Source: a virus. Taken from it: a stretch of 64,000 bases of DNA. Of the stretch, positions 8,678 through 64,000 are shown one piece after another (within the stretch, counting starts at the first letter, position 1; each line of letters begins with the position of its first letter). The stretch lies in IMG/VR virus record IMGVR_UViG_3300024054_000008, positions 32,001 to 96,000 of that record; one strand, given 5' to 3'. Under the pieces are notes generated by a model that was given only the letters and a program-made list of their open reading frames with translations, was not told where the DNA came from and made no database searches. The translations under genes were made by a program, and so were the position numbers.

Positions 8678-8714
8678 AGTCTAAATTGACTTAATAATAA
8701 AGACCTGAAATAAA

Positions 8715-9458: not shown

Positions 9459-9484
9459 GGCTTAAATCAATTTCCATAATCTAT

Positions 9485-11008: not shown

Positions 11009-11520
11009 CCCCAGGCTGTGCTCTTACCAGCCGGACCTTTTGACCAAGACGGCTGTTTCTTTGTGCCGCTAGACCATTCACTTTCTTCACGAACCGTATA
11101 TTCATCACGCTCAGTAACCTGAGAAGTATCATCAGAATCGTAAGTCGGAACTCCCTTGCCGTGGAAAGTCGGACCGGTGTGGTGCATATAAGGTTCGTCA
11201 GATTCGCCCTCAATAACTTTCTGCGGATTTTCAAAAGTTTTCATGTAGGATTCATCAGAATCCTGTTCAATAACTTTAGCCTGACGTTTTCTAAACGATT
11301 CTTCACCAAAAACTTCGGCTTCAAGTTTATCGGAGAACGAATCTATATTCTTAATAATTGAAGCTGTAACCTCAGTTTTTGGAAGCTTTTTTTCCTCAAC
11401 TAGAGCTTCAATATTGCTAGCAATATTCTCCAAAGTCGAGAGTACGTGACTGGCAACCCGCTTGTCCATATTCATAATCTCCGTTCTTTTCGGATAGAGC
11501 ATAGAAGCCCCAACATTCAA
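11005..11520 (-). CDS. Acidic hypothetical protein (probable head/internal protein)
   Basis: 171 aa; internal repeat KVIExxSDExYM twice; KRVAS motif. Confidence 0.7.
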   Translation of the reverse strand: MNVGASMLYPKRTEIMNMDKRVASHVLSTLENIASNIEALVEEKKLPKTEVTASIIKNIDSFSDKLEAEVFGEESFRKRQAKVIEQDSDESYMKTFENPQKVIEGESDEPYMHHTGPTFHGKGVPTYDSDDTSQVTERDEYTVREESEWSSGTKKQPSWSKGPAGKSTAWG

Positions 11521-49100: not shown

Positions 49101-50206
49101 GGAACAGTATGCCATTTATTTAATGTTGTACTAAATTGGACGCCAGGGTCAGCACATAACCAAGCAGCTTCAGATATTTCTTTCCACAATTCTTTTGCTT
49201 TGTAAGTCTTAACTGGTTTGTCGGAGCAATCTAACGTCGTCCAGTCATCGTCATTCAAAACTGCCTGCATAAATTCATCAGAAATGCTGACTGAATGATT
49301 AGCATTCTGATATAAAACATTCTTATATGCACCATTTGGATCATCATAATCTCTACTGTATCCACATTTCAAAATCAAATCATGCGCACGTTTTTCTTCT
49401 ACAGCTTTGGACTTAATAAAACCTGGTCTACCGTCTTTTGTTTCCAAAATATCAGGATGGTCAATATCCAAAACAACCATTTTTGCAGCATTCCGGCAAG
49501 AACCTCCAGATTTCATAGCTTGTGCATATTGATCAAGACCGCGCATCCAAGCAAGCGGTCCACTCACATAAGCACCGCTTGATAACTTTTCATAAGAACT
49601 TCTTAAACTAGAAAGATTAGCACCAGACCCAGAACCGCCAGCAAATATAATTGCTTCTGATTTTTGAAACTCCATAATGGAATCTAATGTATCGTCAACA
49701 CCGGATATAAAACATGCAGAGGCAGCTTGCTTTCTGTCTGGTATTCCTAAATTAAACCAAACCGGAGAGTTAAAAGCCCCGAGTTGGTGAAGAAGTGCCC
49801 AAATTAATTCTTCTTCGTAAATCTTTGCGTCAAGTTCAGTATTAAAATAGCCCTGTTCATCTGCCCATTTTCTCAATGTCTTTGCAACACGCAAAAAGAC
49901 TTGTTTAACAGATGATTCTTTCGTTTCACCAACATACCTGAAGTATTTACTTGCAACTATATTTGTGCAATTTTGCTCCCACCAATCTGGAACTTCAACA
50001 TTTTTTTGCTCAAAAATAACCTTTCCATCTGAATTTTTTATGCAAGCGTCAACAAATTTCCATTTGATCTCATCAAATGGATGGATGTTGTCTTTAGTAA
50101 AAACTCTGGACCAGCGCCCTATATCTTCAGCAATTTTTGATTTACCATTCGATTCTTCACGAATTGGAATAACATTATCAATTACCGCTGTTCCGAGACT
50201 TGACAT
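46190..50206 (-). CDS. nrdJ: Class II (B12-dependent) ribonucleotide reductase with intein
   Basis: FNSPVWFN, SACFI, GSG.N.S.LR, RxAAKM, NP|C-SE, ACNL, APLGT; C-terminal TSCPD-like domain and Zn ribbon. Spliced length 935 aa. Confidence 0.93.
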   Translation of the reverse strand: MSSLGTAVIDNVIPIREESNGKSKIAEDIGRWSRVFTKDNIHPFDEIKWKFVDACIKNSDGKVIFEQKNVEVPDWWEQNCTNIVASKYFRYVGETKESSVKQVFLRVAKTLRKWADEQGYFNTELDAKIYEEELIWALLHQLGAFNSPVWFNLGIPDRKQAASACFISGVDDTLDSIMEFQKSEAIIFAGGSGSGANLSSLRSSYEKLSSGAYVSGPLAWMRGLDQYAQAMKSGGSCRNAAKMVVLDIDHPDILETKDGRPGFIKSKAVEEKRAHDLILKCGYSRDYDDPNGAYKNVLYQNANHSVSISDEFMQAVLNDDDWTTLDCSDKPVKTYKAKELWKEISEAAWLCADPGVQFSTTLNKWHTVPNSGRIRSTNPCFAAETKIATEFGLIQIADLYERIFDGDVKVAVHLGDRVEMRPAVVFPTGENPLLSVKFKSGRELVVTPNHNFLLSDGTKKPAAELVVGDQVDIQCAEGSFGNFDCGLSDSVEWFKIAGFVVGDGWMTETVRHSRKHTEKGWKSDFQHGEIGMCFGKHDKDILSKISSFLHKQEIPFSLKTQSGSIGESPDYMRIRRIGLFRSIEAIACPAGSRSYNKRIQPGVFESPRLNQLAFLSGLISADGTFRMSAKGHGDNIPTRELRLSSMSLGLLQDVQAILLNMGIKSTIMQDRNSASRSGKFTYTSASGEVCTYDSKRTLHELAVYGHSLRKLRDGMKEIGGLLSDRKQAQLDDFLPDGHSDPIHDVWHDSVASVDDTGRVELTYNMTEFTTHTIIAEGVRIPQCSEFAHIDNTACNLCALNLTKFFDGGVFNFEKFKQAVRVFVISQNSIIEKADYPTDLITKNSHKLRPIGLNYGDLGSLIMSQGYSYDSNEGRVIAARMASLMTGLAYQVSAQLAARIGTFADFEKNCEDMLSIMEKHQRADDDILRRWSLSSDPLGDDIVSKSAEVWEETIRLGKKYGYSISQASLQAPLGTVSFLMGMNTTGIEPAFSLVSYKTLVGGGVLKLVNQATKDGLRALGYTDEETAVISKYIEDNDCIEGAPEFKNEHLHVFDCAMPSGDSSRCLDPMAHITMMAAIQPLITCAQSKTVNLPNSATPQDISDIYMESWKLGLKCVSVYRDGSKLSQPLATKERVGEQNGAIVFSDSGPSPIQQRRRLPEDISGHRHRFEIDGYKGYIQMNEYPDGKLGEVFLKLGKPGSTISGLIDGYTQLLSIALQYGVPLEKLIRSFVDTRFEPAGMTRNPKIRFAKSLYDYLMKYLDIRYYSGEVTGIAYRLEEPDSQPAASISKNSESIAPITQIEQNNKRDFSGPPCTTCGSLTVRNGSCYLCKSCGSTSGCS
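47861..49069 (-). mobile_element. Intein (403 aa, LAGLIDADG) ending in Gln, at the RNR catalytic cysteine
   Basis: TNP|CFAAETKI ... VTPNHNF ... AGFVVGDG, LSGLISADG ... THTIIAEGVRIPQ|CSEF. Confidence 0.92.
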
Positions 50207-51017
50207 TCTTAATTTCCTCCGACAACCTTAGCAATCCGAGTTCCAAATCAACAAAAGCCGAATGATTACCTTTTCTTAGTTTTAGATCGATTGATTTAAA
50301 AAAATTAATCTCATTAATTAAAAAATCACGATTCAATTTAATGTCAGAATCAAATTGAAAGATTTCTACGAGCTTGTTTAATAACGGATAAATGACACTA
50401 GCATGTGAATTTGATTTCTTCATTTTGTCGACAAAAGCTGAAACAGATTTTGTCTCACCACCAAACACAAGATCAATTAAAAGAAATGGGCTGAAATCAA
50501 TTGATGAACACATCACTGATTTTGCCATTTCGGGTGAAATCATTTGCGACTCATGATCAGCTACAACAGAAAGTTTCTCTATCTCAGAAGAAAGTTTACG
50601 AAGACATGTTCCATGGTTCACAAAAAGAGCACCAACAACACGGTTTAGATTTATTTTACGACGTTCACCTTCATCAAGAATCCACTTAATGTAATCGTTT
50701 TTATACTTGTTGTATTTTAATTTTTGAATGTCAATCGTTTTAGTCGCTCTTTTGCTGTTTAATTTCTTGTCTTCTTTTGACAAAACAATCAACAAACTGT
50801 TATTAATTGGCAATTCAGGTATTCTATCGGAATTTCTTATCAAGAATGCTGTTCTTTTATCAGATAAATAACACTGCGACAATTCTGTGTATTTAAGTTC
50901 ATCATCTGGAAAATCAAATTTTAAGATTTCGTCGGCTAAGAATCCATCAGTATATTCATAAGCAGCCCTTTCTTTCAGAAATTCATCATCACCATTTATG
51001 ATAATTAAATCCGACAA
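50178..51017 (-). CDS. holA: DNA Pol III delta-like clamp loader subunit
   Basis: IIINGDDEFL N-terminus, WILDEGERRKINL, LSSEIEKL, FLLIDLV, C-terminal DLKLRKG...LELGLL. Confidence 0.65.
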   Translation of the reverse strand: MSDLIIINGDDEFLKERAAYEYTDGFLADEILKFDFPDDELKYTELSQCYLSDKRTAFLIRNSDRIPELPINNSLLIVLSKEDKKLNSKRATKTIDIQKLKYNKYKNDYIKWILDEGERRKINLNRVVGALFVNHGTCLRKLSSEIEKLSVVADHESQMISPEMAKSVMCSSIDFSPFLLIDLVFGGETKSVSAFVDKMKKSNSHASVIYPLLNKLVEIFQFDSDIKLNRDFLINEINFFKSIDLKLRKGNHSAFVDLELGLLRLSEEIKNVKSRNSGN

Positions 51018-51028
51018 TGCTATTGACG

Positions 51029-51820
51029 TTACATCAAATCACACACCAACGAAACCCAATGCGATTCGATGCTAGCGTTCGTTTTAATCAAACTAGAAGC
51101 AAACAACAAAACCTTTTCAATATTATCAGAAAATTCAGGTTTAAAATCCAAACTTTTAACAGCTTTTGAACATATATGTGCTATGGCTTCTCTGTATGGT
51201 GCATAAGTTTTTTTGCAAAAAGAAATAGCTTCAGGCATTTCAACCCTTGAAGGTTTATTTGTTATTAATTTTCTCAAAATAACAAAAAAATTTCTGAGTC
51301 TTTCATCACCATAAACAATTTCATATAACCCTGGTCTGCCATCACAAACATTTATTGAAAAGTCGTCGACAACTGACTTAGAAGCAAATTTAAAAATTTC
51401 ATCTTTGTCTAAAATGCTCCATTTTATTTCTTTTCTGATTCTAGATGAAAATGCGCTAGATAGTAAACCAGTATCGTGGCATATTAAAATAAATATTGAT
51501 TCTGACGACATGTCTTCAAAAGTTTTGAGACACGCATCTTGCGCTGGCAAACTTAATTTATCAACGTCATTTATAAGTATTATTCTAGTTTCACTCTCTA
51601 AAGGTGAAAATTTAGAAAATTCTAAAGCATTTTTGATTTCATTTATTGACGTATCAGAAATGAAAATATCAGAATTAGAAAAATTTGATGTTACAAAATC
51701 TTTCGAAAATGAAAATTTACCCAGACCTCTCTGGCCCGTTAAAGCCACCACTTTTGTCGGGCTCTCCAACAGAATCTTTATTAGTTGATTCTGAGCCTCT
51801 AAGTTGCCGAAAATTTCCAT
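51029..51820 (-). CDS. holB: DNA Pol III delta-prime-like clamp loader subunit
   Basis: IFGN...L, degenerate Walker A GQRGLGK, IILINDVDKLSLPAQDACLKTFED, SR sensor, C-terminal GRPG. Confidence 0.75.
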   Translation of the reverse strand: MEIFGNLEAQNQLIKILLESPTKVVALTGQRGLGKFSFSKDFVTSNFSNSDIFISDTSINEIKNALEFSKFSPLESETRIILINDVDKLSLPAQDACLKTFEDMSSESIFILICHDTGLLSSAFSSRIRKEIKWSILDKDEIFKFASKSVVDDFSINVCDGRPGLYEIVYGDERLRNFFVILRKLITNKPSRVEMPEAISFCKKTYAPYREAIAHICSKAVKSLDFKPEFSDNIEKVLLFASSLIKTNASIESHWVSLVCDLM

Positions 51821-51938
51821 CTATTTCCACAAATTCAATTTTTATGATGAATGACTTTCCACAATTTGAACATACAACTGCGTTAACGTTACTAAGTTGT
51901 TGTAACGAACTCTGGCATTCTGGGCAAAATAAAATCAT
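51717..51938 (-). CDS. Small Zn-ribbon protein
   Basis: MILFCPECQ...VCSNCGK; TAATG coupling to the upstream gene; 3' part overlaps holB by about 100 nt. Confidence 0.45.
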   Translation of the reverse strand: MILFCPECQSSLQQLSNVNAVVCSNCGKSFIIKIEFVEIDGNFRQLRGSESTNKDSVGEPDKSGGFNGPERSG

Positions 51939-52138
51939 TAATACTGAAACACACCACCGACGCCAACTGTCCACGTGTATCTACATTTCTCGCACGTGTA
52001 CCTTTGCTCCGTAGAACCGTCTTGATTATGTTTCTTAACAAACATACCATCGCAAGTTTGACCAGCGGTTAATCTATCAGAACCGCGGCGACATTTCATC
52101 AAAATCGGTTTATCTTTTATTTTATTTTCAACTGTCAT
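51938..52138 (-). CDS. Small Zn-ribbon protein
   Basis: 66 aa, C...C...CEKC; ATGA coupling. Confidence 0.6.
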   Translation of the reverse strand: MTVENKIKDKPILMKCRRGSDRLTAGQTCDGMFVKKHNQDGSTEQRYTCEKCRYTWTVGVGGVFQY

Positions 52139-52482
52139 GGTCTGTTCCGATATGCTTCACTAACCATACCATGCGCTCGTTTGATCAAATCTTCTATTTT
52201 GTCAGAAGAAAACAAAGGAACAGATAAATTCAAAGCTATATTCTTACAAATATCAAAATCTTCTCTCAATAACAAAAACTGTAACTCTTGACGTTGAGGT
52301 ACATGAACACTTACTATTTCTCTGCCATTCAAATTGTTTGAAATAGTTATGTGATTGTTTAATTTTCCAAGAGCTAAATAAACAATCATCAATGGGAACG
52401 TTTTAACAGCATAATCAAATGTAGCTGGTCTTACAAGTCTGCCGTTTCGTTTCTTGTTTGAATAAGAACCGTCGAGTGTCAA
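52135..52482 (-). CDS. Hypothetical protein
   Basis: 115 aa, coupled to its neighbours. Confidence 0.6.
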   Translation of the reverse strand: MTLDGSYSNKKRNGRLVRPATFDYAVKTFPLMIVYLALGKLNNHITISNNLNGREIVSVHVPQRQELQFLLLREDFDICKNIALNLSVPLFSSDKIEDLIKRAHGMVSEAYRNRP

Positions 52483-53633
52483 ATCGCCTCTTCAACACTT
52501 TCAGAACCTTTAGATTTTGGTTCCATAGGTTGAATTGCATCAACGTTAACACCTTGTTTTTTTAGTTTTTTCTTCAAATTATCGTATGATCTTTGATCAA
52601 GTGGAGATAACGGACCTTGTAGCTCCATCCATTTGAATCTAGCAAATTTTCTCTCATCAATGCCGCGTTGATATAGTTCACGCTCTTCAATTTTCTTACG
52701 TTCAATTTTTTCAATTTCACGCGGTGAGACATCAGAAAAAAATGACTCATACAAAGTCTCATAGTCAACCATCGGAAGTTTATTTTCTATAAAATTATGT
52801 ATTTCACTCAAAAGTTGTTTTCTCAAATCACCAACAAATCCAGACCATCGTTTTTCGTTAGCTTTATATAACTCTGGGTGCTTTTCTTTCAGAGTTGAAG
52901 CCTGACCCATATTTTCTTTAATGTCTGACCCAAAACTTCCGACTTCATCAATAAAAATCAAATCGAACAATTTACTGGTGTTTTCTGACAAAGAAGACCT
53001 TAAAGCCGGTATGTAATCACCTATTTGATCATAAAATTCTTTAACAGCGGCTCTTTCGTCTAAAGCCTTACTTATGTCATTTTCATCAATATCCGGAATA
53101 CGACCTTCACCACCCTCTGGAACGCCCCCACCTTCCGGCCTTCTGCCAAATGCTTCCTGTATCCCAGTCTCTTTTTCTTTTTTTCTAAATTTTTCCTTTG
53201 ATTTCGTTATACTGCGACGACGTATATTGCTATATATAGCACCAAGAGCCTCTTTCCAAGAATCAAAATCTTTTCTAAAATTCCATGGCTCAGCAGTTTT
53301 TCGCTTTATAGTTCTGATTTCGCCGTCTTCTGTCTCTTCCTCTACAAATTCAGTCCCAGTTGAAATGTATGTAAGAAAATCTTGAACAGAATCCATAGCG
53401 TCAGCTTCATTATACTGAAGCTGTTTCTTAGCTATGGCTAACATCTTTCCACCAACTTGGTGTGGATGAGCGTCAACTGTTTGATCTGGATATTGTTTTT
53501 TTAAAATATCAATAATCGCCCTACCGAAGCCTTCTTCAATATCAAGAGCTAGCCTGATTATTGTGTAAGCTAGCCTAACCCCAGGAGTTATATTAAATGA
53601 TACGGATTTTGCTATAGAATCAAAATTTGGCAT
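52479..53633 (-). CDS. Hypothetical helical protein
   Basis: 384 aa, charged; N-terminal SIAKSVS. Confidence 0.7.
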   Translation of the reverse strand: MPNFDSIAKSVSFNITPGVRLAYTIIRLALDIEEGFGRAIIDILKKQYPDQTVDAHPHQVGGKMLAIAKKQLQYNEADAMDSVQDFLTYISTGTEFVEEETEDGEIRTIKRKTAEPWNFRKDFDSWKEALGAIYSNIRRRSITKSKEKFRKKEKETGIQEAFGRRPEGGGVPEGGEGRIPDIDENDISKALDERAAVKEFYDQIGDYIPALRSSLSENTSKLFDLIFIDEVGSFGSDIKENMGQASTLKEKHPELYKANEKRWSGFVGDLRKQLLSEIHNFIENKLPMVDYETLYESFFSDVSPREIEKIERKKIEERELYQRGIDERKFARFKWMELQGPLSPLDQRSYDNLKKKLKKQGVNVDAIQPMEPKSKGSESVEEAI

Positions 53634-53657
53634 TTATAGAAATTATTTAATAACAAT

Positions 53658-55028
53658 TTAAGAACTAATTTGTTTGTGCTTTGCCCTATTCAATGCAGCT
53701 ACAACTCTATCAATCGGATAAGAAAGTCTTGACGATATGTCTTCCGGACTCATTCCGATTGAATTTAAAGAATTAAAAAAATCGGTCCTGGCTTTGACTG
53801 GCGCTCCAAACAATTCATCACCTAATAATTTGTGAACATCACAACCATTCCTATTGCAAGCTTCTTGAGCCAACCTATTTATGTGTTCATCGCTGTGATT
53901 ATAATTTCTAAGTTTATTAATGGCTGATGTTCTTAATTTGTTGACACGATTTGATGATACACCAATACTAGATGCATATTTTCTTATTGGAATATCAGAA
54001 ACATCTATTGCAACCAAAACGTTATGTTCATCTTGGCTAAGGTTTGCCCTATCAACACAATTGATCAAATCAATGCGTTTCTCCAACCTTTCATAATCCA
54101 TCATTGATGATGGATCTCTAAAAGATCTCGTTATACTATCAGGACCATTTTCGTCATCACCTTTTTCTATAGATACAATTTCATCATCTGAATACTCAGG
54201 CGATACACCATTATTGTAAATCATTATGCTCGTGTCATCTGACCGAGACATTCTCTTGAAATCGTTTACAACTTCATTGTCAATTACCATTTGAGCATAT
54301 TTTAGTAATCCAGCTGTTACATCGTGATTAGTCTTCCTCATGATATATCTTGGAACTGATTTAACAAGATTTGACCTTCTCCAGTCACGAAGAAACAACT
54401 TTAATTGATTGTCATTCCAACGCAATTTTAACACTTCTTCTGCATTGGAAAGATCAGTCCAATTGTGGGCCAAACTTAATCCTTTAGAATAAAGTAACTC
54501 TTTGCCATGTTTGCATCCAGTACAAGAATGGCGATCATCTGAACAAACATGTTCAGTCATTTCAGAAGGAAGCAAACGGCCTTGCCTATACAAAGACTGC
54601 AAAGAGCCAAAGTCAACATCTGAATAACCAAGAAGACGTAAAACACGAGCAGTGTCTATCGTATGGCCTTGTGGTGAATAATAATACCTAGAATAGTCAA
54701 ATTTTGCATATCTGAGAATATCAGATATCATCCACAAAGAATTTTGGTCAGATCTCTTTCCTTCAACAGGCGAAACATATGATATATACGTTAATGGTGC
54801 CCCTCCAAGAATTGATTCAGCTTGAGTACGATCAACAAGTTCGTCAGTTAAATGTTTAAAAAACCACCTACCAATGAAGTCTTTGCTCAAAAGACGCAAA
54901 CGAACATTTTGGACGGTGTCCATCATTCGTTCTTTGTCACGCTTAAAATGTCTAGAAACTTTTGCGTGAGTCCACGCGTAATATTGTTTGAGAAATTCTT
55001 GGTTCGTCGGGATTTGAATCGGGAACAT
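53658..55028 (-). CDS. Sigma-factor-like protein with a large region-2 insertion and an extra C-terminal HTH
   Basis: Region 2-like YAWTHAKVSRHF...DTVQNVRLRLL and LKYAQMVIDNEVVNDFKR; region 4 LSQDEHNVL...YASSIGVSSNRVNKLRTSAINKLR; a GGAGG SD favours the ATG at 55028 over 55040. Confidence 0.65.
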   Translation of the reverse strand: MFPIQIPTNQEFLKQYYAWTHAKVSRHFKRDKERMMDTVQNVRLRLLSKDFIGRWFFKHLTDELVDRTQAESILGGAPLTYISYVSPVEGKRSDQNSLWMISDILRYAKFDYSRYYYSPQGHTIDTARVLRLLGYSDVDFGSLQSLYRQGRLLPSEMTEHVCSDDRHSCTGCKHGKELLYSKGLSLAHNWTDLSNAEEVLKLRWNDNQLKLFLRDWRRSNLVKSVPRYIMRKTNHDVTAGLLKYAQMVIDNEVVNDFKRMSRSDDTSIMIYNNGVSPEYSDDEIVSIEKGDDENGPDSITRSFRDPSSMMDYERLEKRIDLINCVDRANLSQDEHNVLVAIDVSDIPIRKYASSIGVSSNRVNKLRTSAINKLRNYNHSDEHINRLAQEACNRNGCDVHKLLGDELFGAPVKARTDFFNSLNSIGMSPEDISSRLSYPIDRVVAALNRAKHKQISS

Positions 55029-55041
55029 CTTTACCTCCATG

Positions 55042-55088
55042 CAGCAAATAATTTGCTGACTTACAGAGTATTGGGCACAAAGCCCAAT
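55042..55088. promoter_or_regulatory. Two inverted repeats in the leader of the sigma-like gene
   Basis: CAGCAAAT-A-ATTTGCTG (55042-55058) and ATTGGGC-ACAAA-GCCCAAT (55070-55088). Confidence 0.5.
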
Positions 55089-55103
55089 TTACGATGTGGT
55101 GTT

Positions 55104-55133
55104 ACCCTACCATAGTCTGAGCCATTTTGTCAA
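55104..55133 (-). promoter_or_regulatory. Sigma70-type promoter upstream of the sigma-like gene
   Basis: TTGACA-18nt-TAGGGT with TGn extension. Confidence 0.6.
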
Positions 55134-55161
55134 TATACGGCAAATAATCATAAATTTTCAC

Positions 55162-56145
55162 TTATTGAATAGTTGAAGCGTATTTCTGATTATTTTCAAC
55201 AATCTGCTCTGGCTTCTGTTTAAACAAAATAGCTTGTGCATTTTTATCAAGGATTGAAACTTTGTATCTGGAAATTAAAGTGACAGCAAATCCGACTCTA
55301 GATCGTGACTCAGTCTGGTTATCTTTACACGACCCGGTAGCATACGCACTAAGACGATCCAAAGTATCCTGCTTTCTGCAGGCACTAAATGACCTACGCA
55401 TTGCGTTTAACCCGGCTGTAAAACATTTTGTACGGTCTTGCACAAGATCTTGACCAGACCAACCCTCTGGGGTCTTACCATTACCAATGTGCATTTGCAT
55501 TAAACACCAACTTTTGCCTTTATCGCCCCTAGCAAATTTTCCTAAACCGTAGTCTATGTCACGTCTAAAACCAGATTCAAAAAAAGCCACAGATATCATC
55601 AACATGGCCGTCCTGGCTCTTCCATATTTGCCATTGAAAATTGGTTTAGAGTTTGGATTATAAACAACTTTTGCAAGATCAAGAGCTATAGACTCATACC
55701 TGTCTTTAGCATCTTCTTTGCTTTCTTTTGCATGTTCATAATACGAAACCATCCCCGGGGTCCTTAATTTAGTAAGAACTTGATAAATCCAAAAATACGA
55801 TTCTTTAAATTTAAGTTCAGCAAGGTATTTATTTGCTTCGTCTTTGTGTAATGAAGATGCTCTCTCATCTGTAGACGCTAAGAAAACGTCAAAGTTTTTT
55901 GTTGCAGATTCATTGTCTTTAAACATAAAATAAGCGACTGCCATGTTATATCTGACAATCGCTTTATCTTCTAATTCTAAAGACCGTTTGTAGTTGTCTA
56001 TTGCAGTTTGCCAATTTTTTGCAGAAGCCGCCGATTGTCCATCTTTAAAATAAGACTCAGCGTTCGTTTTAGAATCTTGTGCATGAGAATTGTTAAACAA
56101 AAGCAAAATTGCAATTGCAACAAAAAACTTTAATTGTGACTTCAT
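55162..56145 (-). CDS. Secreted TPR + lysozyme-like / lytic transglycosylase protein
   Basis: Sec-type signal MKSQLKFFVAIAILLLFNNSHA, two TPR-like helices, catalytic-like AFFESGF and CLMQ motifs. Confidence 0.7.
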   Translation of the reverse strand: MKSQLKFFVAIAILLLFNNSHAQDSKTNAESYFKDGQSAASAKNWQTAIDNYKRSLELEDKAIVRYNMAVAYFMFKDNESATKNFDVFLASTDERASSLHKDEANKYLAELKFKESYFWIYQVLTKLRTPGMVSYYEHAKESKEDAKDRYESIALDLAKVVYNPNSKPIFNGKYGRARTAMLMISVAFFESGFRRDIDYGLGKFARGDKGKSWCLMQMHIGNGKTPEGWSGQDLVQDRTKCFTAGLNAMRRSFSACRKQDTLDRLSAYATGSCKDNQTESRSRVGFAVTLISRYKVSILDKNAQAILFKQKPEQIVENNQKYASTIQ

Positions 56146-56174
56146 GTCATTACCTCGTTCAAGCCGAATAGCTA

Positions 56175-56198
56175 AGCACTTGCACCAAATTTTGTCAA
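56175..56198 (-). promoter_or_regulatory. Possible sigma70-type promoter upstream of the TPR-transglycosylase gene
   Basis: TTGACAAAAT (same as at 55133), with an imperfect -10 (TTAGCT) at 17 nt. Confidence 0.35.
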
Positions 56199-56210
56199 AT
56201 CAAAATTATT

Positions 56211-56474
56211 TTATTTCTTAAATGGAGAAAGCTCTAAATACTGAATAAAACCATTTAAACTTGATTGCACTGAAATGTGTTTGTATTTCTTTTTTGTAAC
56301 AACATACTCACCTTGAACAATCCTTTTCTTGTTCAAATGTTTTGGATGGCGCAAATTAGCATCAATTTCTACAACATCACCTTCATTCAATAATGGCCAA
56401 TCTGAAACTCGAAGTTCATAATGTCTAGGAACATCAGTAAAAATAATAATTGTTTTAAAGTATGGTGAAATCAT
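56211..56474 (-). CDS. Small hypothetical protein
   Basis: 87 aa, beta-strand pattern. Confidence 0.55.
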   Translation of the reverse strand: MISPYFKTIIIFTDVPRHYELRVSDWPLLNEGDVVEIDANLRHPKHLNKKRIVQGEYVVTKKKYKHISVQSSLNGFIQYLELSPFKK

Positions 56475-56475
56475 T

Positions 56476-57195
56476 GTGAAATACTACAGTACACTAAACA
56501 AAAAAGAAAAATTTTTGTTGGAAGAAAAATTAGAAGAAATTCTAAACAAAAGATTCGGAAAATCAAAAGAAAATGAACAATTGAAACAAATTTTGTCAAA
56601 AATGATAGAAAAAAAGTCAATACCGGTTGAATTAATAGAAAAAATACCGAAGAAGCCGGAAGAAGCAGGAAGAACAAAATTCGATCAAATTTATGAAGCA
56701 GCAATAGAATTGGCTTTTCCAAGTTATGGCAAAAACACGTTATCAAATTTAACAAAAATAAACGACAACAAAATAAAGATATGGAGGATAGTAGCACCGA
56801 ACAAATACAAAATACCACACGTTTTGATCAGAGCAGAATCAATACAAGAAGCGTTTGCTTTAGCATGCGATTACGTTTGTAGAGCTTCTCTACGTTTATT
56901 AGGTGAAATACCAGCGGATTTACAAATAAGAGTAATATTTATGTCTGAAAAAGCTGTTAGAAGATATTTGGGCATAAAATGGGCAAATAGATTGAATAAA
57001 AGAAAAAAATTGAATTTGATGGAACGTGAATTCTCAAATGATGAAATACAAAAAGCGACTGAAGTTGCTTTGAATGGACCAAAAGACGAAACTTATAGGA
57101 TAGTAAAATATATGGAAGAAAAAGATTTATTAAAAATAAAGAAAACATTTAACAGAATAAGAATTTCACCAATAGAAAAAAAATCAACAAAATAA
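56476..57195 (+). CDS. Basic hypothetical protein upstream of purZ
   Basis: 239 aa, co-oriented 36 nt before purZ; no HD or MazG motif recognised. Confidence 0.65.
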   Translation: MKYYSTLNKKEKFLLEEKLEEILNKRFGKSKENEQLKQILSKMIEKKSIPVELIEKIPKKPEEAGRTKFDQIYEAAIELAFPSYGKNTLSNLTKINDNKIKIWRIVAPNKYKIPHVLIRAESIQEAFALACDYVCRASLRLLGEIPADLQIRVIFMSEKAVRRYLGIKWANRLNKRKKLNLMEREFSNDEIQKATEVALNGPKDETYRIVKYMEEKDLLKIKKTFNRIRISPIEKKSTK

Positions 57196-57231
57196 TCAAA
57201 CTTCAGATGTATTGTTTCGTACGAGGAACCA

Positions 57232-58431
57232 ATGATAAAAGGCAGATTTAACGTATTGTTGGACCAAGCTTGGGGTTCGAGCGGGAAAGGCTTGATGTCA
57301 ACATGGCTTGCAGATCACTTTAACATCAACCACGTATCTTCAGCTAATCATCCCAATGCCGGACACTCGGCAATAATTGATGACATAAAATTCGTTGCTA
57401 AGGCCATACCAACAGCCGCAATTTTAAAAAAAGCAAAAGGCGTTGATATAAAGTGTTTCATATCACCAGGTTCTGGTTTCACTTGGAAACAGTTGTGTAA
57501 AGAATGGATTGAAACAGAAAAACCAGAAATTTTCATACACTCTCGTGCATCAATTGTGACCGAAGAACACGCAAAGCGCGAACGTGAAGGTGCAGAATCA
57601 ACAAAGCATATTGCATCAACAATGCAGGGCACAGCAACGGCAATAGCAGACAAAATTTTAAGAAAAAAAGATGTTAAATTGGCAGGAACATTGCCTTTAA
57701 ATGAATTTATCGAACACGAATTTAAATCAAATTCAGAATTCAAAATTTTCAGCGCTTATCTTGATGAATTTTACGAAAAAGTTCGTATAATTGACGCGAT
57801 GGAATTCAGAAATTTGACTCATTCAATAATCAAATCAGGAAATCAATGGTTACACGAAGGAAGCCAAGGATACGCTTTATCAATTGATCACGGATCTCAC
57901 TATCCACAATCAACATCAAGAAACTGTTCATTGCAAGCAGCAATGGACTACATGGCTATACCGCCCCAAATGGTTGGAGATGTTTATTTGAATTTAAGAT
58001 CATTTCCGATAAGGGTAGGAAATGTTATAGAGGATGGGGTTCAAAAAGGATACTCTGGTGATTTCTATCCAGATTCAAAAGAATTAACCTGGGAAGAGGT
58101 CGGAAAAAACGCTGGCATGCCAGAAGAAGAAATACAAAAATTAAGAGAACGCGAGTTGACAACAGTTACAAAAAGACTTAGAAGAGTTGCTACATTTAGT
58201 TGGATCGGACTTCGAGATGCTGTTCAAACAAACGGAGTGACTAAGATCTGTGTGAATTTTATCCAATACATAAATTGGAAAGATGCTGGTCTAAAAGGCG
58301 GAAAAGAAGCGTTCGATCGACTTTCAAGTGAAAGTCGGTCTTTTATTTCAAAAGTCGAAGAAGTTTCTGATTTACCAGTCGTTCTTGTTGGAACTGGACC
58401 GCGACACGAAGACATCATTTCTATCTTGTAA
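57232..58431 (+). CDS. purZ: PurZ-type N6-succino-2-amino-2'-deoxyadenylate synthetase (adenylosuccinate synthetase paralog)
   Basis: WGSSGKG (Ser in place of PurA Asp in GDEGKG), PNAGH, IASTMQG, EGSQG, TSRN, FPIRVGN, TTVTKRLRR, NFIQY, GTGP. Confidence 0.8.
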   Translation: MIKGRFNVLLDQAWGSSGKGLMSTWLADHFNINHVSSANHPNAGHSAIIDDIKFVAKAIPTAAILKKAKGVDIKCFISPGSGFTWKQLCKEWIETEKPEIFIHSRASIVTEEHAKREREGAESTKHIASTMQGTATAIADKILRKKDVKLAGTLPLNEFIEHEFKSNSEFKIFSAYLDEFYEKVRIIDAMEFRNLTHSIIKSGNQWLHEGSQGYALSIDHGSHYPQSTSRNCSLQAAMDYMAIPPQMVGDVYLNLRSFPIRVGNVIEDGVQKGYSGDFYPDSKELTWEEVGKNAGMPEEEIQKLRERELTTVTKRLRRVATFSWIGLRDAVQTNGVTKICVNFIQYINWKDAGLKGGKEAFDRLSSESRSFISKVEEVSDLPVVLVGTGPRHEDIISIL

Positions 58432-59863
58432 ACAGAAACTTTAGTTTCTCTTTCCCAAAAACTTTCTTGTAGTTATGTTTTTCAGCATAACTACTTTCTT
58501 TCATCTTGCACGACCTTGCATGGTTATATAATGTCTTCTTGTGCATCATCCATCCATTAGAATCAACATAAACATAGTCAGGTTTAACAGTTGAAACTAG
58601 AACCCAATTGGCGGCTTTGTATATTGTACCAACATGCCCATACGTTGTGTCAGCAAATGAAACAACGGCTTTTACATTTTTGAATTCATTCAAAAACATT
58701 TTGGTACATCTAGACAAAAACCAAGTTGCAAAATTTTTCTTATGACGATTTGGGCTGATGCAAAAACGGTCAAGTTCGAAAATTTCTTTGGTTGTATATC
58801 CAGAAGATAATGCAGTTTCCTTCCTAGAAAGCGGAGAAAACTTGCAAACAGCTATTAATTCACTTTCTAAATATGCACCAATCACAAATTTTGGCTTTTT
58901 GCCTTCTTGAGCATAATGCCACGTCCTTAAAAAGATCTCCGAATCCGATATTTGACAGATTCTAACTTTAACAGACCTGATATCGAAATCATCTAAACAC
59001 TGGATTGATAATTTTAACTGATTTTTTAGTTTTTCAGCAACCTTTCCAGTCGACAATAATTCATTCTCCCAGATATAGATTAGTTTAGAATTTGGAAAAG
59101 ATTTCATTAAATAAGACAGCTTGGCTTTATCTCTCTTAGAGTTATGCGGGAGGTTATGCCAATATTCACCTTGAACATCGATAAATGCGTCATGTTTTGG
59201 TAAATAAAAATCAAAATTATACGGACCAACTGCCCTTTCCGATTCATATTCTATATTGAGATTGTTCAAAATGTTAGCAAATATTTTCTCAGGTCTAGAA
59301 CGATTTCCAGATGAATAAAATTTTTCAATACCCTTTGCAATTTTGATTTTATATTCATCATTTTTAAATCTGTTTTTTGCAAGCTCTCTGTGCAAATCTT
59401 TGTATTTTTGTTTATTTACAGCTTTTTTGTGATTCTTTCTAGCCTTCTCTGTGTGCAATGCGTATACTTTCTCTCTCAAATACTTACCGGGGTCAATTTT
59501 GTATTCACTTTTGTTTCGTTCAGAAACTAATTTTTTATGTTCTTCAGATTTAAATAATTTGTTGATTCTATCAATTTGACATTTTCGGTACGATTTGTTC
59601 TTCCACGCCTGTTTTGACTGCTTAGACCTTTGCAATTTTGCTTCGTCGGTATTAAATGTGCACTTCATACATGAATAAATGCCATTTTTCTTTTTGTTTT
59701 GTAAATAATTATAATAGGTAACTATTGATTCTCTATCACATAACTCACATTTCGCCCAAGTTTTTCTTTTTTGTTTGCTAGACCCGAACCAAATTGTCGG
59801 TGGAATTTTATATCCAAAATCATCTAAATTTTTATTTTCAAGTAACACATACAATCGTAACAC
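58421..59863 (-). CDS. Zn-ribbon + Vsr/DUF559-like endonuclease + Mom-like GNAT fusion (copy C)
   Basis: SRPE...FDFY...DVQGEYWH; FLRTWHY...ELDRFC...KKNFATWFLS...SFAD...GHVGTIYKAANW. Confidence 0.85.
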   Translation of the reverse strand: MLRLYVLLENKNLDDFGYKIPPTIWFGSSKQKRKTWAKCELCDRESIVTYYNYLQNKKKNGIYSCMKCTFNTDEAKLQRSKQSKQAWKNKSYRKCQIDRINKLFKSEEHKKLVSERNKSEYKIDPGKYLREKVYALHTEKARKNHKKAVNKQKYKDLHRELAKNRFKNDEYKIKIAKGIEKFYSSGNRSRPEKIFANILNNLNIEYESERAVGPYNFDFYLPKHDAFIDVQGEYWHNLPHNSKRDKAKLSYLMKSFPNSKLIYIWENELLSTGKVAEKLKNQLKLSIQCLDDFDIRSVKVRICQISDSEIFLRTWHYAQEGKKPKFVIGAYLESELIAVCKFSPLSRKETALSSGYTTKEIFELDRFCISPNRHKKNFATWFLSRCTKMFLNEFKNVKAVVSFADTTYGHVGTIYKAANWVLVSTVKPDYVYVDSNGWMMHKKTLYNHARSCKMKESSYAEKHNYKKVFGKEKLKFLFTR

Positions 59864-59884
59864 GAAGATCGAAAAGAATCAATT

Positions 59885-62530
59885 CTATGCAAAAGCAATA
59901 ACATTAGCTATCAATTCTATGTTAGATGAAGTTTTTGTTTCTTTGCCTTTCTCATTCTGAAGACGGAATTTGACCGTAGCTCGTACACGTGAACTTCTGT
60001 CTCTTAACATTTTTTCAAGATGTTCATATGGAATTCGTTTTGAAACCGCCCATCTAACACCAGGGTTCGGGTCTTTTAACATTTCTTCAAGATGTGACGG
60101 GTCTATTCTTTCAGCCACGATCCGTCTAATATTTGAATCTGAATCATCAATTAATTTTGGTAAATGCGATTCATCAATATTTCTAGCAACAGCCATTCTC
60201 ACGCCATGTTTATTACTATCAATGTGTTTCAAGAGAAAATCTTGGTCAACCTTCTTAAATATTTTATTTACCACGTCAGCATACCATTTTGAGAAATCAA
60301 GCTTTTCAAAAACATCAGGATAGAATTTTTTATCAATTTTACCGAGTATAAGACCTAAAACCGTATTTTTTTCATCAAACAACTCAATTTTTTCAAGAAC
60401 CTTATGCGCGTATTCTTTAGGAAGAAGCCTGACAACCTGTTGTTCAACTCCATAACCTAGTTTAGGAGCTTCTGCTTTACCATCAAAATATCGCATTAAT
60501 TCATGCAGTTTAATAACAACAGAAGCATGCCTTTTAACATGCTCAATGCCATCATCTTCAAGATTCGGAAAATTTTCTAATTTAGCACGTTCTTCGTTAC
60601 TACCGATCCATGCGATTACATCATTTGGATCATCAGATTTATCAAACCCAGTTTCATCGTACTTTCCACCATAGTTCATCATAACGCTGTTAGCAAGTAA
60701 TCTGATCTGTTCATTTTCGTCGTTAAGAAAACGTTGCACAAATTCGCGCGTTTCTTTTCTGCCGGAACTTGAGAAACTGTGAACTCCAGGCAAGCCTTTT
60801 CTTTTTATATATTCAAGAACAAAACATTTTTTGTCCACATCACTACTTTTAGAAAATTCATCTAACTGTTCTCTACTTACACTACGATTTATAATTATTG
60901 CTTTTCTAACAAATTTAGAACTATCAGATAATGGCTTTAATTTTTCAGGAACTGAAGAATTTGATTGAATACTTGCTCTAACTTTTTCATTCGGATGATT
61001 TATCAATTTATTCAATAACTTGTCATCAATTTCCTTTAAATTAACTTTTGCAACTTCTGCCACAACTTCATCATCTGGGTCATTTAACAATTCAATAACA
61101 GCTTTTTTGTACAAGCCACTATGTTGCCCACGTAGCCAACGTTTCAATCCTTCAGCAAAAGCTTTTCTAACATCAACATCTGGATCTTTTAATAAATTCC
61201 AAATCAAATTAAAATTTACTTCATCAGGTTTACTAAACAAATTTATCAAAATTGATTTTCTAATATTTGGATTTTCACTATTTGAGTATTCTTTTATTTG
61301 TTCTTCGTTTAATGTTGCCCTTTCAATAACAATATGTTCATTAGCATCACTTAATTCTTTACGAAATTTTGGGTCACTTATTCTATTTATCAAATCAATT
61401 GCAGGTTTTGACCAACCAACTCCATGATAATTACCAGCAAAAAATTCTGGATTGCGTTCAAGATAAAACCTTATTAATTCGTCAAATTGCGGACCATCGT
61501 TCATTAAATCAAAATTTACAGGATAATTTTTCTTGCTTAGATCAATAAGAATGTCATCTAATTCCGGTGACTTAGAACAAATTTTGTTAGTCATATGATA
61601 AACGAGACTGTCAGATAAATCTCCTTTCAGTACTCTATCTAATATTGGTTTATCAAGTTCTTCTTTTGGTTCTATATAAGGTATAATTGGTGACAACCCT
61701 TCATCATCTAAAGACATAAAATAGTGTCTGGCATCACTAGGTGAAATCGTCCCTTTCTTAAGCGAAACTATAGGACCATCTGGAGCATTTGGCGCATCTT
61801 CTAAAACAATTTGGTTGATATGACTAAATTCTGGTATTCCAGGTATGGACTGTCTAGTTATAACTTTATCTCTAGCATTGAAAATTGTGACACGCTCAAC
61901 TTCGTTATCAATACCTCTACGAACGTCCCAAGCAATTTTTGAAAACTCTTTTGGAGTTTTAACATCGCGAAAATCAACGTTTTCTTTCTGACCTTCTTCT
62001 TCAGCTCGTTTGTCTATCAAAAAATAAAAAACACTATTGCCACCCTTATATGATTCCCAGTAATGATGGGCTCTCATTGTTATGCACCATTTGGTGCCTT
62101 TACCATATTGTATACACGCATCACGGGTATCAATTCTAAATAAAACGTGCGTATCACTTTCCCAAAGTTTAGTAGCACCTTCGGATTTGATACGTTCTTT
62201 CTGTTTAGTTTTGGACTCAGGCAAATCTTTAATAGTGTTTTCAAGTTCCTTCAATGATTTATATTGATTAATATCTTTCTTATCTAATCTCTGTTGATTT
62301 TTATGAAATGCCTCAACAGTTGGGATGAGATCTTCTAATTTTGCTTTTTGTTTTAATTGTTTAACAGACCATTCTAAATATTTACCCTTTTTAGATGGAT
62401 CTGATTCAGACAATTGTTTGATTTCATCTTCTAAATCAGGGTTAGCTGATATCAAATCATCAACTTTTGCAGCAACAAGAATGCGAAAAGCTATTTTTGA
62501 TAATCTATACGGATACAACAAAAATAACAT
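59885..62530 (-). CDS. Large protein with a YGxGTKWCI domain and C-terminal HEAT/ARM-like repeats
   Basis: 881 aa; repeats LLKDPDVDVR, LLNDPDDEVV, LINHPNEKVR, LIDDSDSNIR, MLKDPNPGVR, MLRDRSSRVR. Confidence 0.8.
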   Translation of the reverse strand: MLFLLYPYRLSKIAFRILVAAKVDDLISANPDLEDEIKQLSESDPSKKGKYLEWSVKQLKQKAKLEDLIPTVEAFHKNQQRLDKKDINQYKSLKELENTIKDLPESKTKQKERIKSEGATKLWESDTHVLFRIDTRDACIQYGKGTKWCITMRAHHYWESYKGGNSVFYFLIDKRAEEEGQKENVDFRDVKTPKEFSKIAWDVRRGIDNEVERVTIFNARDKVITRQSIPGIPEFSHINQIVLEDAPNAPDGPIVSLKKGTISPSDARHYFMSLDDEGLSPIIPYIEPKEELDKPILDRVLKGDLSDSLVYHMTNKICSKSPELDDILIDLSKKNYPVNFDLMNDGPQFDELIRFYLERNPEFFAGNYHGVGWSKPAIDLINRISDPKFRKELSDANEHIVIERATLNEEQIKEYSNSENPNIRKSILINLFSKPDEVNFNLIWNLLKDPDVDVRKAFAEGLKRWLRGQHSGLYKKAVIELLNDPDDEVVAEVAKVNLKEIDDKLLNKLINHPNEKVRASIQSNSSVPEKLKPLSDSSKFVRKAIIINRSVSREQLDEFSKSSDVDKKCFVLEYIKRKGLPGVHSFSSSGRKETREFVQRFLNDENEQIRLLANSVMMNYGGKYDETGFDKSDDPNDVIAWIGSNEERAKLENFPNLEDDGIEHVKRHASVVIKLHELMRYFDGKAEAPKLGYGVEQQVVRLLPKEYAHKVLEKIELFDEKNTVLGLILGKIDKKFYPDVFEKLDFSKWYADVVNKIFKKVDQDFLLKHIDSNKHGVRMAVARNIDESHLPKLIDDSDSNIRRIVAERIDPSHLEEMLKDPNPGVRWAVSKRIPYEHLEKMLRDRSSRVRATVKFRLQNEKGKETKTSSNIELIANVIAFA

Positions 62531-62576
62531 GCTAATAGTTATTTGTCATAAAAAACTAAAGTAATGTAATAAATTA

Positions 62577-62801
62577 ATGAACAAGCCGCGCGTTTTTGAA
62601 AACGGGTCAGTTACAATTGTTTCGAACGATAAAGATATAAGATTATACGTTGGGGTACATGAAATAAAAAAATTTTCAAAAATTGAATTAATTCATGATA
62701 AACTAAATAAATTAATAATATCTATTGATGGCAAATCAATTGAATCTGAAGAATCAGAAAGAATTCTATCGACATTAACTTGGGTAACAATCAAGGAATA
62801 A
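62577..62801 (+). CDS. Small hypothetical protein
   Basis: 74 aa protein-like ORF. Confidence 0.55.
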   Translation: MNKPRVFENGSVTIVSNDKDIRLYVGVHEIKKFSKIELIHDKLNKLIISIDGKSIESEESERILSTLTWVTIKE

Positions 62802-63387
62802 TTTCAATCTTAGTCTTCTTTATCTCTTGATCCAAATTCTTTTTTCGTTTTAGATGGATGCCAATTTGTTCGGGGTTGTCCAACATATATTTATAACAGG
62901 ATTCGAAATAACCAACAACTGGGTTCAATGCGTCCTTTATCATTAATTCTTCCAAAATTAATTTACCGCTAGATGCATCAGAAAACAACCATTCTTCAGT
63001 AATTGGTGTGTCATTATTAATTTGACTCCAAACATTCCCATACGGAAGCATAACTAATGTATACTCGGTTTTTTTCAAATGCGGGGTAGGCTCAGTAACA
63101 AAATCTTCACGCCGCTTAATTGAAAAAAATACTCCATCGGGTAAATCAATACCTAACATTGATGTGGTCACCCATCTTTTAATACTCATAAGTTTTACCT
63201 CGGGGGTCTTCAAATGTAATTTTTTCCTAAGAGGAAGGCTACAATTATATAAAGCTGATGGTGATAATTTGACTACCCAAGGCCTAAAGTCACTAGGAAC
63301 TGTAGGAAATGTGTGTAATGATTCAATATATAATATTCCTATTTTATTAACTTTTTCCTGTATTAATTTTAGTTGATCAGAATCCAT
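62791..63387 (-). CDS. Hypothetical protein
   Basis: Start at MDSDQLKL (63387) preferred; the longer 63573 start is antisense to the next gene. Confidence 0.6.
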   Translation of the reverse strand: MDSDQLKLIQEKVNKIGILYIESLHTFPTVPSDFRPWVVKLSPSALYNCSLPLRKKLHLKTPEVKLMSIKRWVTTSMLGIDLPDGVFFSIKRREDFVTEPTPHLKKTEYTLVMLPYGNVWSQINNDTPITEEWLFSDASSGKLILEELMIKDALNPVVGYFESCYKYMLDNPEQIGIHLKRKKNLDQEIKKTKIEIIP

Positions 63388-64000
63388 GATTCGTCCTGTC
63401 CAAAACCAAACATTACCGGACAACAAATCAAATGCAAAATATGTTGAATTTATTTGTGATTGCGGCAACACATTCAAGCGAAGATGGAGGTCATTCAAAG
63501 ATGGTAACAACAAATCTTGTGGAAAATGCAATATATTTCGGATACATAATACAAAACAAATCACATTCGGCAAACTTAAGTTATTACAACAAATAACAAA
63601 AGATAATAAATCATCTGATCTAATTAAGGCAATATGTAACTGTGGAACACATAAAACTATTAAAATAAAATCACTGTTAGAAGGTGTTGAAAGTTGTGGT
63701 TGTTCAAGATATAAAGAAATAAAACATCATGAGACAAAACCAATAAACCAATGGAAAGAAGAACTACCAGAATTGGTCATAGACGAATCAACGCCGCAAA
63801 ACCTAAGTAGAAAAAGTTCTCAAGTTTGCAAATTTAAATGTAAATGCGGAAGTGTTTATTCAAAGAGGTTTGAGCATTACAAACCAAATAAGAGTTCTTG
63901 TGGCAAATGCGATGAAATAATAATTAAAAATGGCGACAAAATAAATAATTTTACGTACGTAGGGCACAAACTAAAATTAAAAACTAAGTCGATTAAAAAA
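63386..64000 (+). CDS. Zn-ribbon repeat protein, probably another homing-endonuclease-type gene (3' truncated)
   Basis: Not in the ORF track. Manual translation is open for 205 codons to the window edge: FICDCG...KSCGKC, FGKLKL...ICNCG...ESCGC, FKCKCG...SSCGKC, like the 9485-11008 repeats. Confidence 0.75.
   Translation, partial: MIRPVQNQTLPDNKSNAKYVEFICDCGNTFKRRWRSFKDGNNKSCGKCNIFRIHNTKQITFGKLKLLQQITKDNKSSDLIKAICNCGTHKTIKIKSLLEGVESCGCSRYKEIKHHETKPINQWKEELPELVIDESTPQNLSRKSSQVCKFKCKCGSVYSKRFEHYKPNKSSCGKCDEIIIKNGDKINNFTYVGHKLKLKTKSIKK

Follow-up and report, generated by a model that had tools for sequence, protein, structure and literature searches.

The window analysed here is a stretch of 64,000 nucleotides (nt) that spans bases 32001-96000 of one IMG/VR virus record, which is 182,739 bases long and has an overall guanine plus cytosine (GC) content of 38.8%; the window encodes a homologue of PurZ, the N6-succino-2-amino-2′-deoxyadenylate synthase. 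The purZ-type gene occupies positions 57232..58431 on the + strand; its open reading frame (ORF) starts with ATG, is free of internal stops and encodes 399 amino acids (aa). A Shine-Dalgarno-like GAGGA (57223..57227, + strand) can be read directly in the sequence 4 nt before the ATG. Because the product matches the Pfam family PF00709 with an E-value of 1.1e-32 (113.7 bits against a cut-off of 27) and phrog_1211, the PHROG that contains PurZ, with an E-value of 9.3e-53, the assignment to the adenylosuccinate synthetase family is beyond chance. The best match among the NCBIfam models is the PurZ model, NF038379, and two PurA models remain below their cut-offs (TIGR00184, 124 against 395.55 bits; NF002223, 99.5 against 402 bits). 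The composition of the gene (38.3% GC, 29.3% at third codon positions) is typical of the contig, for which the means over the 97 ORFs of at least 600 nt are 38.2% and 31.3%; this composition and the conserved synteny described below give no sign of recent horizontal acquisition.

Residues were compared in an L-INS-i alignment of 18 sequences, with the PurZ of phage phiVC8 (VpPurZ) providing the reference numbering. The three motifs that had led the first-pass annotation to propose a PurZ are present, namely AWGSSGKG (residues 13-20), TTVTKRLRR (residues 310-318) and NFIQY (residues 342-346). In the first motif, S16 aligns with the catalytic Asp of PurA (D14 of the Salmonella enzyme, D13 in Escherichia coli) and with S14 of VpPurZ; Ser is found at this position also in all 9 other aligned huge-phage sequences. 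The same replacement has been reported for 147 of the 147 phage PurZ-group sequences (PMC12884076, section 24), and the catalytic Asp is 99% conserved in PurA (PMC12884076). In the second motif, L316 falls at an Arg position of the TTGRRRR stretch of PurA, and in the third, F343, Q345 and Y346 stand in place of K, D and V in the TKLDV of PurA. The GTP-specific Asp of PurA is thereby substituted by Q345; S-2L PurZ likewise has Gln here and phiVC8 PurZ has Asn, whereas PurA and PurZ0, which is described as a GTP user, keep the Asp.

Further correspondence to VpPurZ is seen at T310, F343 and Y346, which are equivalent to T262, F295 and Y298, and at P259, Y279, W287 and G291, which agree with P233, Y244, W252 and G256, with a conservative change to Thr at the position of S273. 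The residues of general catalytic importance are all kept (K19, N42, H45, T130, R144, Q212, T313, R315 and R317). Two of the three residues of the pocket for the 2-amino group of 2′-deoxyguanylate (dGMP), S16 and T310, match VpPurZ, and the residues of an ATP-type donor pocket are in place (F343, Y346) with the GTP-specific Asp absent. The roles of F12, S14, T262, F295 and Y298 in VpPurZ have been described, with F295 and Y298 assigned to the adenine ring of ATP (bioRxiv 10.1101/2025.10.22.683976, section 8). In another account, the nucleotide preferences of PurZ0 and PurZ are given as "ATP and GTP, respectively" (PMC12884076, section 24). The order of the two nucleotides in that sentence appears to be swapped, because it is PurZ0, not PurZ, that keeps the GTP-specific Asp and because the preprint places F295 and Y298 at the adenine of ATP.

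For phylogenetic analysis, an exhaustive HMMER search (2241 matches at E<=1e-3, 198 at E<=1e-30) provided 150 representatives, of which 126 (300-460 aa) entered the trees; the other 24 are long intein-bearing forms or fragments, and one huge-phage sequence (huge_L006) was set aside owing to its intein. From the contigs, 26 of 80 loci were used. The references comprised 7 annotated PurZ and 4 PurZ0 from phage records, bacterial and haloarchaeal PurA, and 12 short archaeal PurA. Three trees were built, with FastTree (187 rows), with a quick run of IQ-TREE (73 rows) and with a careful run of IQ-TREE (50 rows); the 73-row subset and the 50-row subset derived from it were picked by hand so as to keep every major clade. 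All three trees place the protein on the PurZ side of the split between PurZ0 and PurZ, away from archaeal and bacterial PurA.

In the careful tree (supports given as UFBoot/SH-aLRT, that is, ultrafast bootstrap and SH-like approximate likelihood ratio test), long PurA (100/100) and short archaeal PurA (99/95) form separate groups, and PurZ0 and PurZ unite (100/99) against the latter. The four PurZ0 references form a clade of their own (100/100), outside a broad-sense PurZ group of 37 rows (97/82). Within this group, a 29-row clade (99/87) joins the characterised PurZ (8 rows, 100/99; among them phiVC8, ZP6, S-2L, SH-Ab 15497, PMBT28 and BCSR129) with an 18-row clade (98/95) that contains the window's protein within a group of 9 huge-phage rows (97/95). 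Branches with supports of 99-100 set the protein apart from both PurA groups. The comparison with PurA, PurZ and PurZ0 that the first-pass annotation had suggested thus finds the protein inside the PurZ clade and not with PurA; the purZ product is a member of this clade and falls in a large uncharacterised sub-clade. Its identity as a PurZ0 was considered and rejected, given the Gln in place of Asp, the GSSGKG P-loop, the position outside the 100/100 PurZ0 clade and the lack of a dUTPase in the contig.

Two features of the wider family became apparent in the course of this analysis. In relatives of the protein, inteins that contain LAGLIDADG homing endonucleases occupy at least two different sites (in L006, positions 8594-11056, after the NAGH loop; in P0002 near residue 248; two in P0005; also in P0010), and 12 of the 150 listed PurZ-family representatives are 734-1197 aa long. 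A PurZ-clade gene is also found in addition to a normal PurA gene in the myxobacteria Sorangium sp. So ce131 (L055:6001-7871) and Chondromyces apiculatus DSM 436 (L056), with products 42-43% identical to that of the window's purZ. In Sorangium, there is a 4-nt overlap between this gene and one for a 253-aa protein whose C-terminal domain is a dUTPase (PF00692, 104.9 bits), an arrangement that recalls the DutZ pairing of the PurZ0 type.

The AlphaFold (AF2) model of the purZ product, built from a 21-row alignment, is confident (predicted local distance difference test, pLDDT, 93; predicted template modelling score, pTM, 0.91), and the protein is predicted to have a PurZ-like fold. Foldseek ranks S-2L PurZ first (7ODX, 1.7e-30), followed by phiVC8 PurZ (6FKO, 6FM1), Pyrococcus PurA and PurZ0, and all 43 chains at E<=1e-3 among the matches listed are PurZ, PurZ0 or PurA. 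Sequence searches against chains of the PDB give a similar order: phiVC8 PurZ at 3e-29, S-2L PurZ at 3e-26, Pyrococcus PurA at 1e-25 and PurZ0 (7VF6) at 1e-11. Identity to solved or cultured PurZ is only 27-31%. In the phage collection, 195 records match the product at E<=1e-5, all below 60% identity; the best are about 34% identical (Burkholderia phages BCSR129 and Bm1), and the PurZ/PurZ0 phage records among the matches listed are 38-83 kb long. A scan of genome contigs with the single purZ product as query gave no match. Orthologues are present in ten viral contigs, with 62-66% identity in nine and 51% in the tenth. The residues, the phylogeny and the predicted structure together bear out the initial proposal of a PurZ-type enzyme rather than a PurA, and we regard this identification as highly probable.

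The contig belongs to a tailed phage, with genes in the window for a major head protein, a large terminase (TerL), a portal-like domain, an exonuclease V/helicase, an NAD-dependent ligase and the large subunit of ribonucleotide reductase. The contig is classed as linear and 43% complete (CheckV). In its complete relative G007 (393,220 bases, with direct terminal repeats), 95 of 272 crude contig ORFs find tblastn matches at E<=1e-5, and because most of the matched ORFs are collinear with the 204-381 kb interval of G007, the contig is estimated to represent about two fifths of a phage genome of about 400 kb. Complete relatives span 377-436 kb, so that the designation as a jumbo-type phage proved apt for this 43%-complete fragment; the accompanying description of the genome as AT-rich stands in a weaker form, the bias being moderate (32 to 42% GC across the 4-kb bins of the window). 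The lineage is one of uncultured phages of about 380-440 kb that includes this lake-water phage. The purZ region is contained in lake-water metagenome runs, of which two from 2018 may be its source, while three further runs (X8-X10) contain only small shares of its sequence words. Low-depth contigs from four 2025 lake-water runs are identical to the window wherever they overlap it; being identical, they offer no variation for a selection test, and they hold no information on base modification. Two related contigs had been binned with a Methylobacter and a Lentisphaeria metagenome-assembled genome and were treated as probable phage contigs, not as evidence of the host. Megablast of window positions 50000-64000 against phages gave no match.

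Some other properties of the record deserve mention. The major head protein (phrog_2522; window 2748-3632, - strand) is 92.5% identical to its counterpart in G007; most other proteins common to the contig and G007 are 35-65% identical, and the two genomes differ by 11 GC points. The large subunit of ribonucleotide reductase (window 46190-50206, - strand) is 1337 aa long and matches its PHROG in two stretches, and may therefore carry an intein or another insertion. At the contig end, outside the window (contig bases 1-70), the first 50 bases recur at an offset of 18, which suggests a short tandem repeat.

Evidence on a pathway around this PurZ comes from the relatives. A gene for a DatZ-like HD-domain protein adjoins a gene for a MazG-like protein in all five close relatives that are at least 60% complete, namely G003 (72% complete), G007 (100%), G009 (60%) and the complete genomes G076 and G084. 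In complete genomes some 190-230 kb separate this pair from purZ. None of the seven PurZ-bearing contigs that lack the pair is more than 47% complete. Among 21 further large contigs surveyed on the basis of TerL, only the two complete genomes in which PurZ scores highly (G076, 505 bits; G084, 483 bits) have a PF12917 match, and no such match was found in the 19 other TerL-related large contigs searched. DatZ-like HD proteins of the relatives score 87 and 74 bits against PF12917, and the best PHROG is phrog_7076, dATP triphosphohydrolase. At DatZ positions 20 and 22, four of the five DatZ-like proteins of the relatives have Y and S and the fifth has F and S; the combination of Y20 with T or S at 22 is reported to be prevalent on dZ-enriched contigs (bioRxiv 10.1101/2025.10.22.683976, section 10). 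The MazG-like proteins score weakly against their families (PF12643/PF03819). A PolA (PF00476) is present in G003, G007, G008 and G009. When the DatZ-like protein of G007 was the sole query of a viral scan, G007 itself was the only match.

Two peculiarities of this region were also recorded. At its C-terminus, the MazG-like protein of G007 (L015:2076-2789) bears a Multiubiquitin domain (PF14452, 28.6 bits), which is missing in the G009 homologue. Beside the DatZ-like gene, a gene for a pyroglutamyl peptidase (PF01470, 114 bits; L015:652-1299 in G007) is found in four of the five genomes that bear the pair (G003, G007, G009 and G076).

Directly upstream of purZ and co-oriented with it lies a conserved gene (56476..57195, + strand; 239 aa as listed, the start being uncertain), and the genes just upstream of this pair and directly after purZ are on the other strand. 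In 10 of 12 related loci, a co-oriented homologue of the upstream gene directly precedes purZ; the exceptions are L003, where it lies nearby on the other strand, and L008, from which it is absent. The family shows 58% mean column identity over 12 sequences. Its protein gave no PHROG match and only a sub-threshold Gal11_ABD1 match in Pfam, Foldseek against pdb returned nothing at E<=1e-3, the best Z of VIA wide (5.5) is within the stated noise of that tool, and Atlas yielded no convincing structural match (best feature score 0.75, best template modelling (TM) score 0.35). As the listed GTG start is only 2 nt from that of a divergent gene (56211-56474), translation probably begins further in; in the Atlas record, the protein starts at residue 15.

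Convergent to purZ on the - strand is a gene (58421-59863) for a Mom-family domain fused to a Vsr-like nuclease (PF25680, 89.4 bits), whose ORF end overlaps that of purZ by 11 nt. A homologue with 47.5% identity occupies the same place in G009 (L009:11199-12683). This gene looks like a mobile insertion and not a part of the pathway, and a Mom-type adenine modifier would be an odd component of a putative Z-genome.

The best explanation of these data, to which we attach a little more credence than doubt, is an active PurZ-type enzyme in a phage lineage of about 380-440 kb in which the genes for the synthesis of 2-aminoadenine (Z) are dispersed. That the phage replaces some or all of the adenine in its DNA with Z is, in our assessment, a fairly likely consequence; indirect support for such a Z-genome comes from the relatives with 62-66% identity in PurZ, because these carry the DatZ-like/MazG-like pair elsewhere in their genomes. 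We infer the substrates of the enzyme, a helper pair in the unsampled 57% of the genome and the presence of Z in virion DNA. The gene itself bears several signs of being used, namely its native composition, the synteny in 10 of 12 loci, the inteins in relatives and the identical sequence in four other lake-water runs.

Under this explanation, the purZ product would phosphorylate O6 of dGMP using ATP, with H45 as the catalytic acid, and S16, which replaces the PurA base, would leave space for the 2-amino group. Aspartate would then displace the phosphate to yield N6-succino-2-amino-2′-deoxyadenylate (dSMP). A PurB lyase, from the host or encoded by the phage in some relatives, would convert dSMP to the Z deoxynucleoside monophosphate (dZMP), and host or phage kinases would produce the triphosphate (dZTP). 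The MazG-like enzyme of the relatives may supply dGMP from dGTP, and their DatZ-like enzyme may deplete dATP so that any polymerase would insert Z opposite T. Depletion of dATP with insertion of Z by any polymerase is the established mechanism of S-2L. The genes of the pathway would be scattered in this lineage, with purZ in a two-gene unit with the conserved upstream gene. A bolder version, which we consider doubtful, holds that the whole lineage of about 380-440 kb replicates fully Z-substituted genomes, some five to ten times the size of any known Z-genome, through such a dispersed pathway and that the 239-aa protein is a new component or regulator of Z synthesis; the pathway would then consist of a divergent PurZ, a DatZ-like protein of the Y/S type, a MazG-like protein unlike the PF04447 type of MazZ, and a polymerase outside the DpoZ clades.

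A number of observations weigh against adenine replacement in this phage, and most of them concern the partner genes. Family searches of the 182.7-kb contig found no match to PF01966 (HD), PF03819 (MazG), phrog_7076 (DatZ) or phrog_2165, and none to PF00476 (PolA), PF00206 (Lyase_1/PurB), PF07733 (DnaE) or PF00692 (dUTPase); the families searched in these genomes were other than PF04447/PF18909 (DUF550) and the NDT families. In tblastn, the DatZ, candidate MazZ, DUF550 and DpoZ proteins of phiVC8 and SH-Ab 15497 gave nothing below E 0.04 in the contig (for the DUF550-bearing SH-Ab 15497 protein, the best E-values were 1.1 in this contig, G000, and 1.3 in G007), and the DatZ-like and MazG-like proteins of the relatives gave no match there either. 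The initial observation that HD-type datZ, mazZ and family A polymerase genes are missing from the surroundings of purZ is accordingly correct and holds for the whole contig: the search of its remainder for datZ, mazZ, dUTPase and polymerase genes returned none in 182.7 kb (43% complete). Such a gene set would be expected if the enzyme is a genuine PurZ that makes dZ nucleotides in a phage without dATP clearing, with partial Z content or a perturbed host purine pool as the outcome, an alternative that we consider unlikely. It would agree with G008, a 91%-complete relative in which PurZ is 51% identical, a dUTPase is present and no DatZ-like (phrog_7076) match was found, and with the complete TerL relatives G078, G088, G090 and G091, which have PurZ-family matches and no PF12917 match. 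However, the contig reaches only 89 kb and 92 kb either side of purZ, short of the roughly 190-230 kb that separate purZ from the pair in the relatives; furthermore, the pair is present in all five close relatives that are at least 60% complete. Against this, a block syntenic to the 79.6-87.7 kb interval of G007, which in that genome ends 6 kb before the helper pair, is present in the contig without the pair, and so the DatZ-like and MazG-like genes may have been lost in this phage. The co-occurrence of the pair with the PurZ clade may also reflect a single inheritance event and would for that reason be weak evidence of a functional link. Finally, G007 shows no similarity to phiVC8 DpoZ in tblastn (best E 1.6), and PurB-like genes occur in only 3 of 11 records and DnaE in 2 of 11, neither being present in G007.

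The remaining objections concern the enzyme itself. The score of 179.9 bits with the NCBIfam PurZ model is below the cut-off of 300 bits, on which ground the purZ product is a representative of a separate, uncharacterised PurZ sub-clade. The third residue of the 2-amino pocket is PurA-like: a Trp, the PurA state, stands at residue 14, whereas VpPurZ has F12 and the PurZ references have F, Y or V. In addition, S36 and K146 differ from I34 and P144 of VpPurZ. Taken with the low identity to solved and cultured PurZ, the extra segments relative to phiVC8 PurZ and the pairing of purZ with a conserved gene that has no family assignment, these differences would suit an enzyme with another pair of substrates (for example GMP, another purine nucleotide or another phosphate donor) and a product other than dZ in DNA. 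We judge this quite improbable, given that the DatZ-like and MazG-like enzymes of the relatives fit a deoxynucleotide Z pathway. An ordinary auxiliary metabolic gene of the PurA type, raising AMP synthesis from inosinate (IMP), Asp and GTP during infection, would be compatible with the PF00709 membership, with the score of the archaeal PurA model NF003295 (164.2 bits, close behind the PurZ model), with the close structural match to Pyrococcus PurA and with the ribonucleotide reductase large subunit that the window also encodes; with Ser in place of the catalytic Asp, Gln in place of the GTP-specific Asp and trees that separate the protein from both PurA groups, it was rejected and is at most a very remote prospect. 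A decaying or inactive remnant is even harder to credit: the reading frame is intact, all catalytic residues are kept, the composition is native, the model is confident, and orthologues occur in ten contigs (nine at 62-66% identity, one at 51%), with conserved synteny. Among the runs listed as containing the gene there is no RNA run, which in itself is no evidence either way.

A literature search, which covered papers without the supplementary tables of those on the Z pathway, found none linking PurZ with jumbo, huge, giant or mega phages, and in two jumbo-phage reviews (PMC7824862, PMC13282480) no relevant Z-pathway terms occur. What appears to be new here is the divergent PurZ sub-clade, the dispersed pathway, the conserved partner gene and a genome about 10 times the size of those of known Z-phages. 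If phages of about 400 kb do use Z, neither a very large genome nor replication machinery that differs from DpoZ would be an obstacle to Z-DNA. The Z pathway need not then be a compact cassette, and surveys that seek purZ beside datZ and mazZ would overlook phages of this kind. A Z-genome would also shape the escape of these phages from restriction and CRISPR systems in lakes. The divergent PurZ, DatZ-like and MazG-like enzymes of the lineage, perhaps together with a new partner protein, are a resource for the synthetic biology of Z-DNA.

Among the known systems, the closest are phiVC8 PurZ (DgsS; PDB 6FM1, 6FKO, 6TNH) and S-2L PurZ (7ODX), which have the same fold and are the best matches in both structure and sequence. 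They share with the protein the Ser in place of the catalytic Asp, the Thr at position 262, the Phe and Tyr at positions 295 and 298, the loss of the GTP-specific Asp and the common 29-row clade (99/87). The differences, apart from the 26-31% identity, are the Trp in place of VpPurZ F12, the residues S36 and K146, and the length: the protein is 40-56 residues longer than these two enzymes, has a PurA-like C-terminal part and contains extra segments at about residues 150-185 and 293-307 that are absent from phiVC8 PurZ. Unlike in phiVC8 and S-2L, purZ is not beside datZ and mazZ, and the genome, at about 400 kb, is about 10 times larger than the 38-83 kb of the listed phage PurZ/PurZ0 records. 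Earlier studies of PurZ and PurZ0 include Sleiman 2021, Zhou 2021, Pezo 2021, Czernecki 2021 and Tong 2023.

The likeness to PurZ0 consists in the Ser that replaces the catalytic Asp and in the common superclade of PurZ0 and PurZ (100/99). PurZ0 differs, however, in keeping the GTP-specific Asp, in having Met and Gln where the protein has Phe and Tyr, in its GSEAKG P-loop, in its weaker similarity (1e-11) and in forming its own 100/100 clade outside the 37-row PurZ group. PurZ0 phages use DutZ and DmtZ (PMC12884076, sections 24-25), whereas no dUTPase gene match was obtained in the contig. The PurA of Pyrococcus horikoshii (PDB 2D7U/5K7X; NF003295) has in common with the protein a compact fold without the insertions of long PurA (TM score 0.73-0.75 normalised by the query), and in the trees short archaeal PurA is the sister group of PurZ0 and PurZ together; unlike the window's protein, archaeal PurA retains both GDEGKG and the GTP-specific Asp.

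With regard to the partner genes, comparative papers on the Z pathway describe clustered modules of purZ, datZ and mazZ or of dutZ and dmtZ (PMC12884076 among them). The pairing of an HD protein (YfbR/DatZ-like) with an all-alpha MazG-like protein, known from the purZ-mazZ-datZ cluster of S-2L and Alteromonas phage ZP6, recurs in the relatives of this phage, but some 190-230 kb away from purZ, to which it is adjacent in S-2L and ZP6. The DatZ-like proteins of the relatives have Y or F at position 20 and S at 22, in place of W20 and I22 or L22 (W20-I22 in S-2L), and the MazG-like proteins match PF12643/PF03819 weakly and not PF04447, the MazZ type. The first-pass annotation had listed DpoZ as a partner in the characterised Z-phages, S-2L included; this does not apply to S-2L, whose annotation shows a PrimPol and no DpoZ. 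Because S-2L uses PrimPol, DpoZ is not obligatory for a Z-phage.

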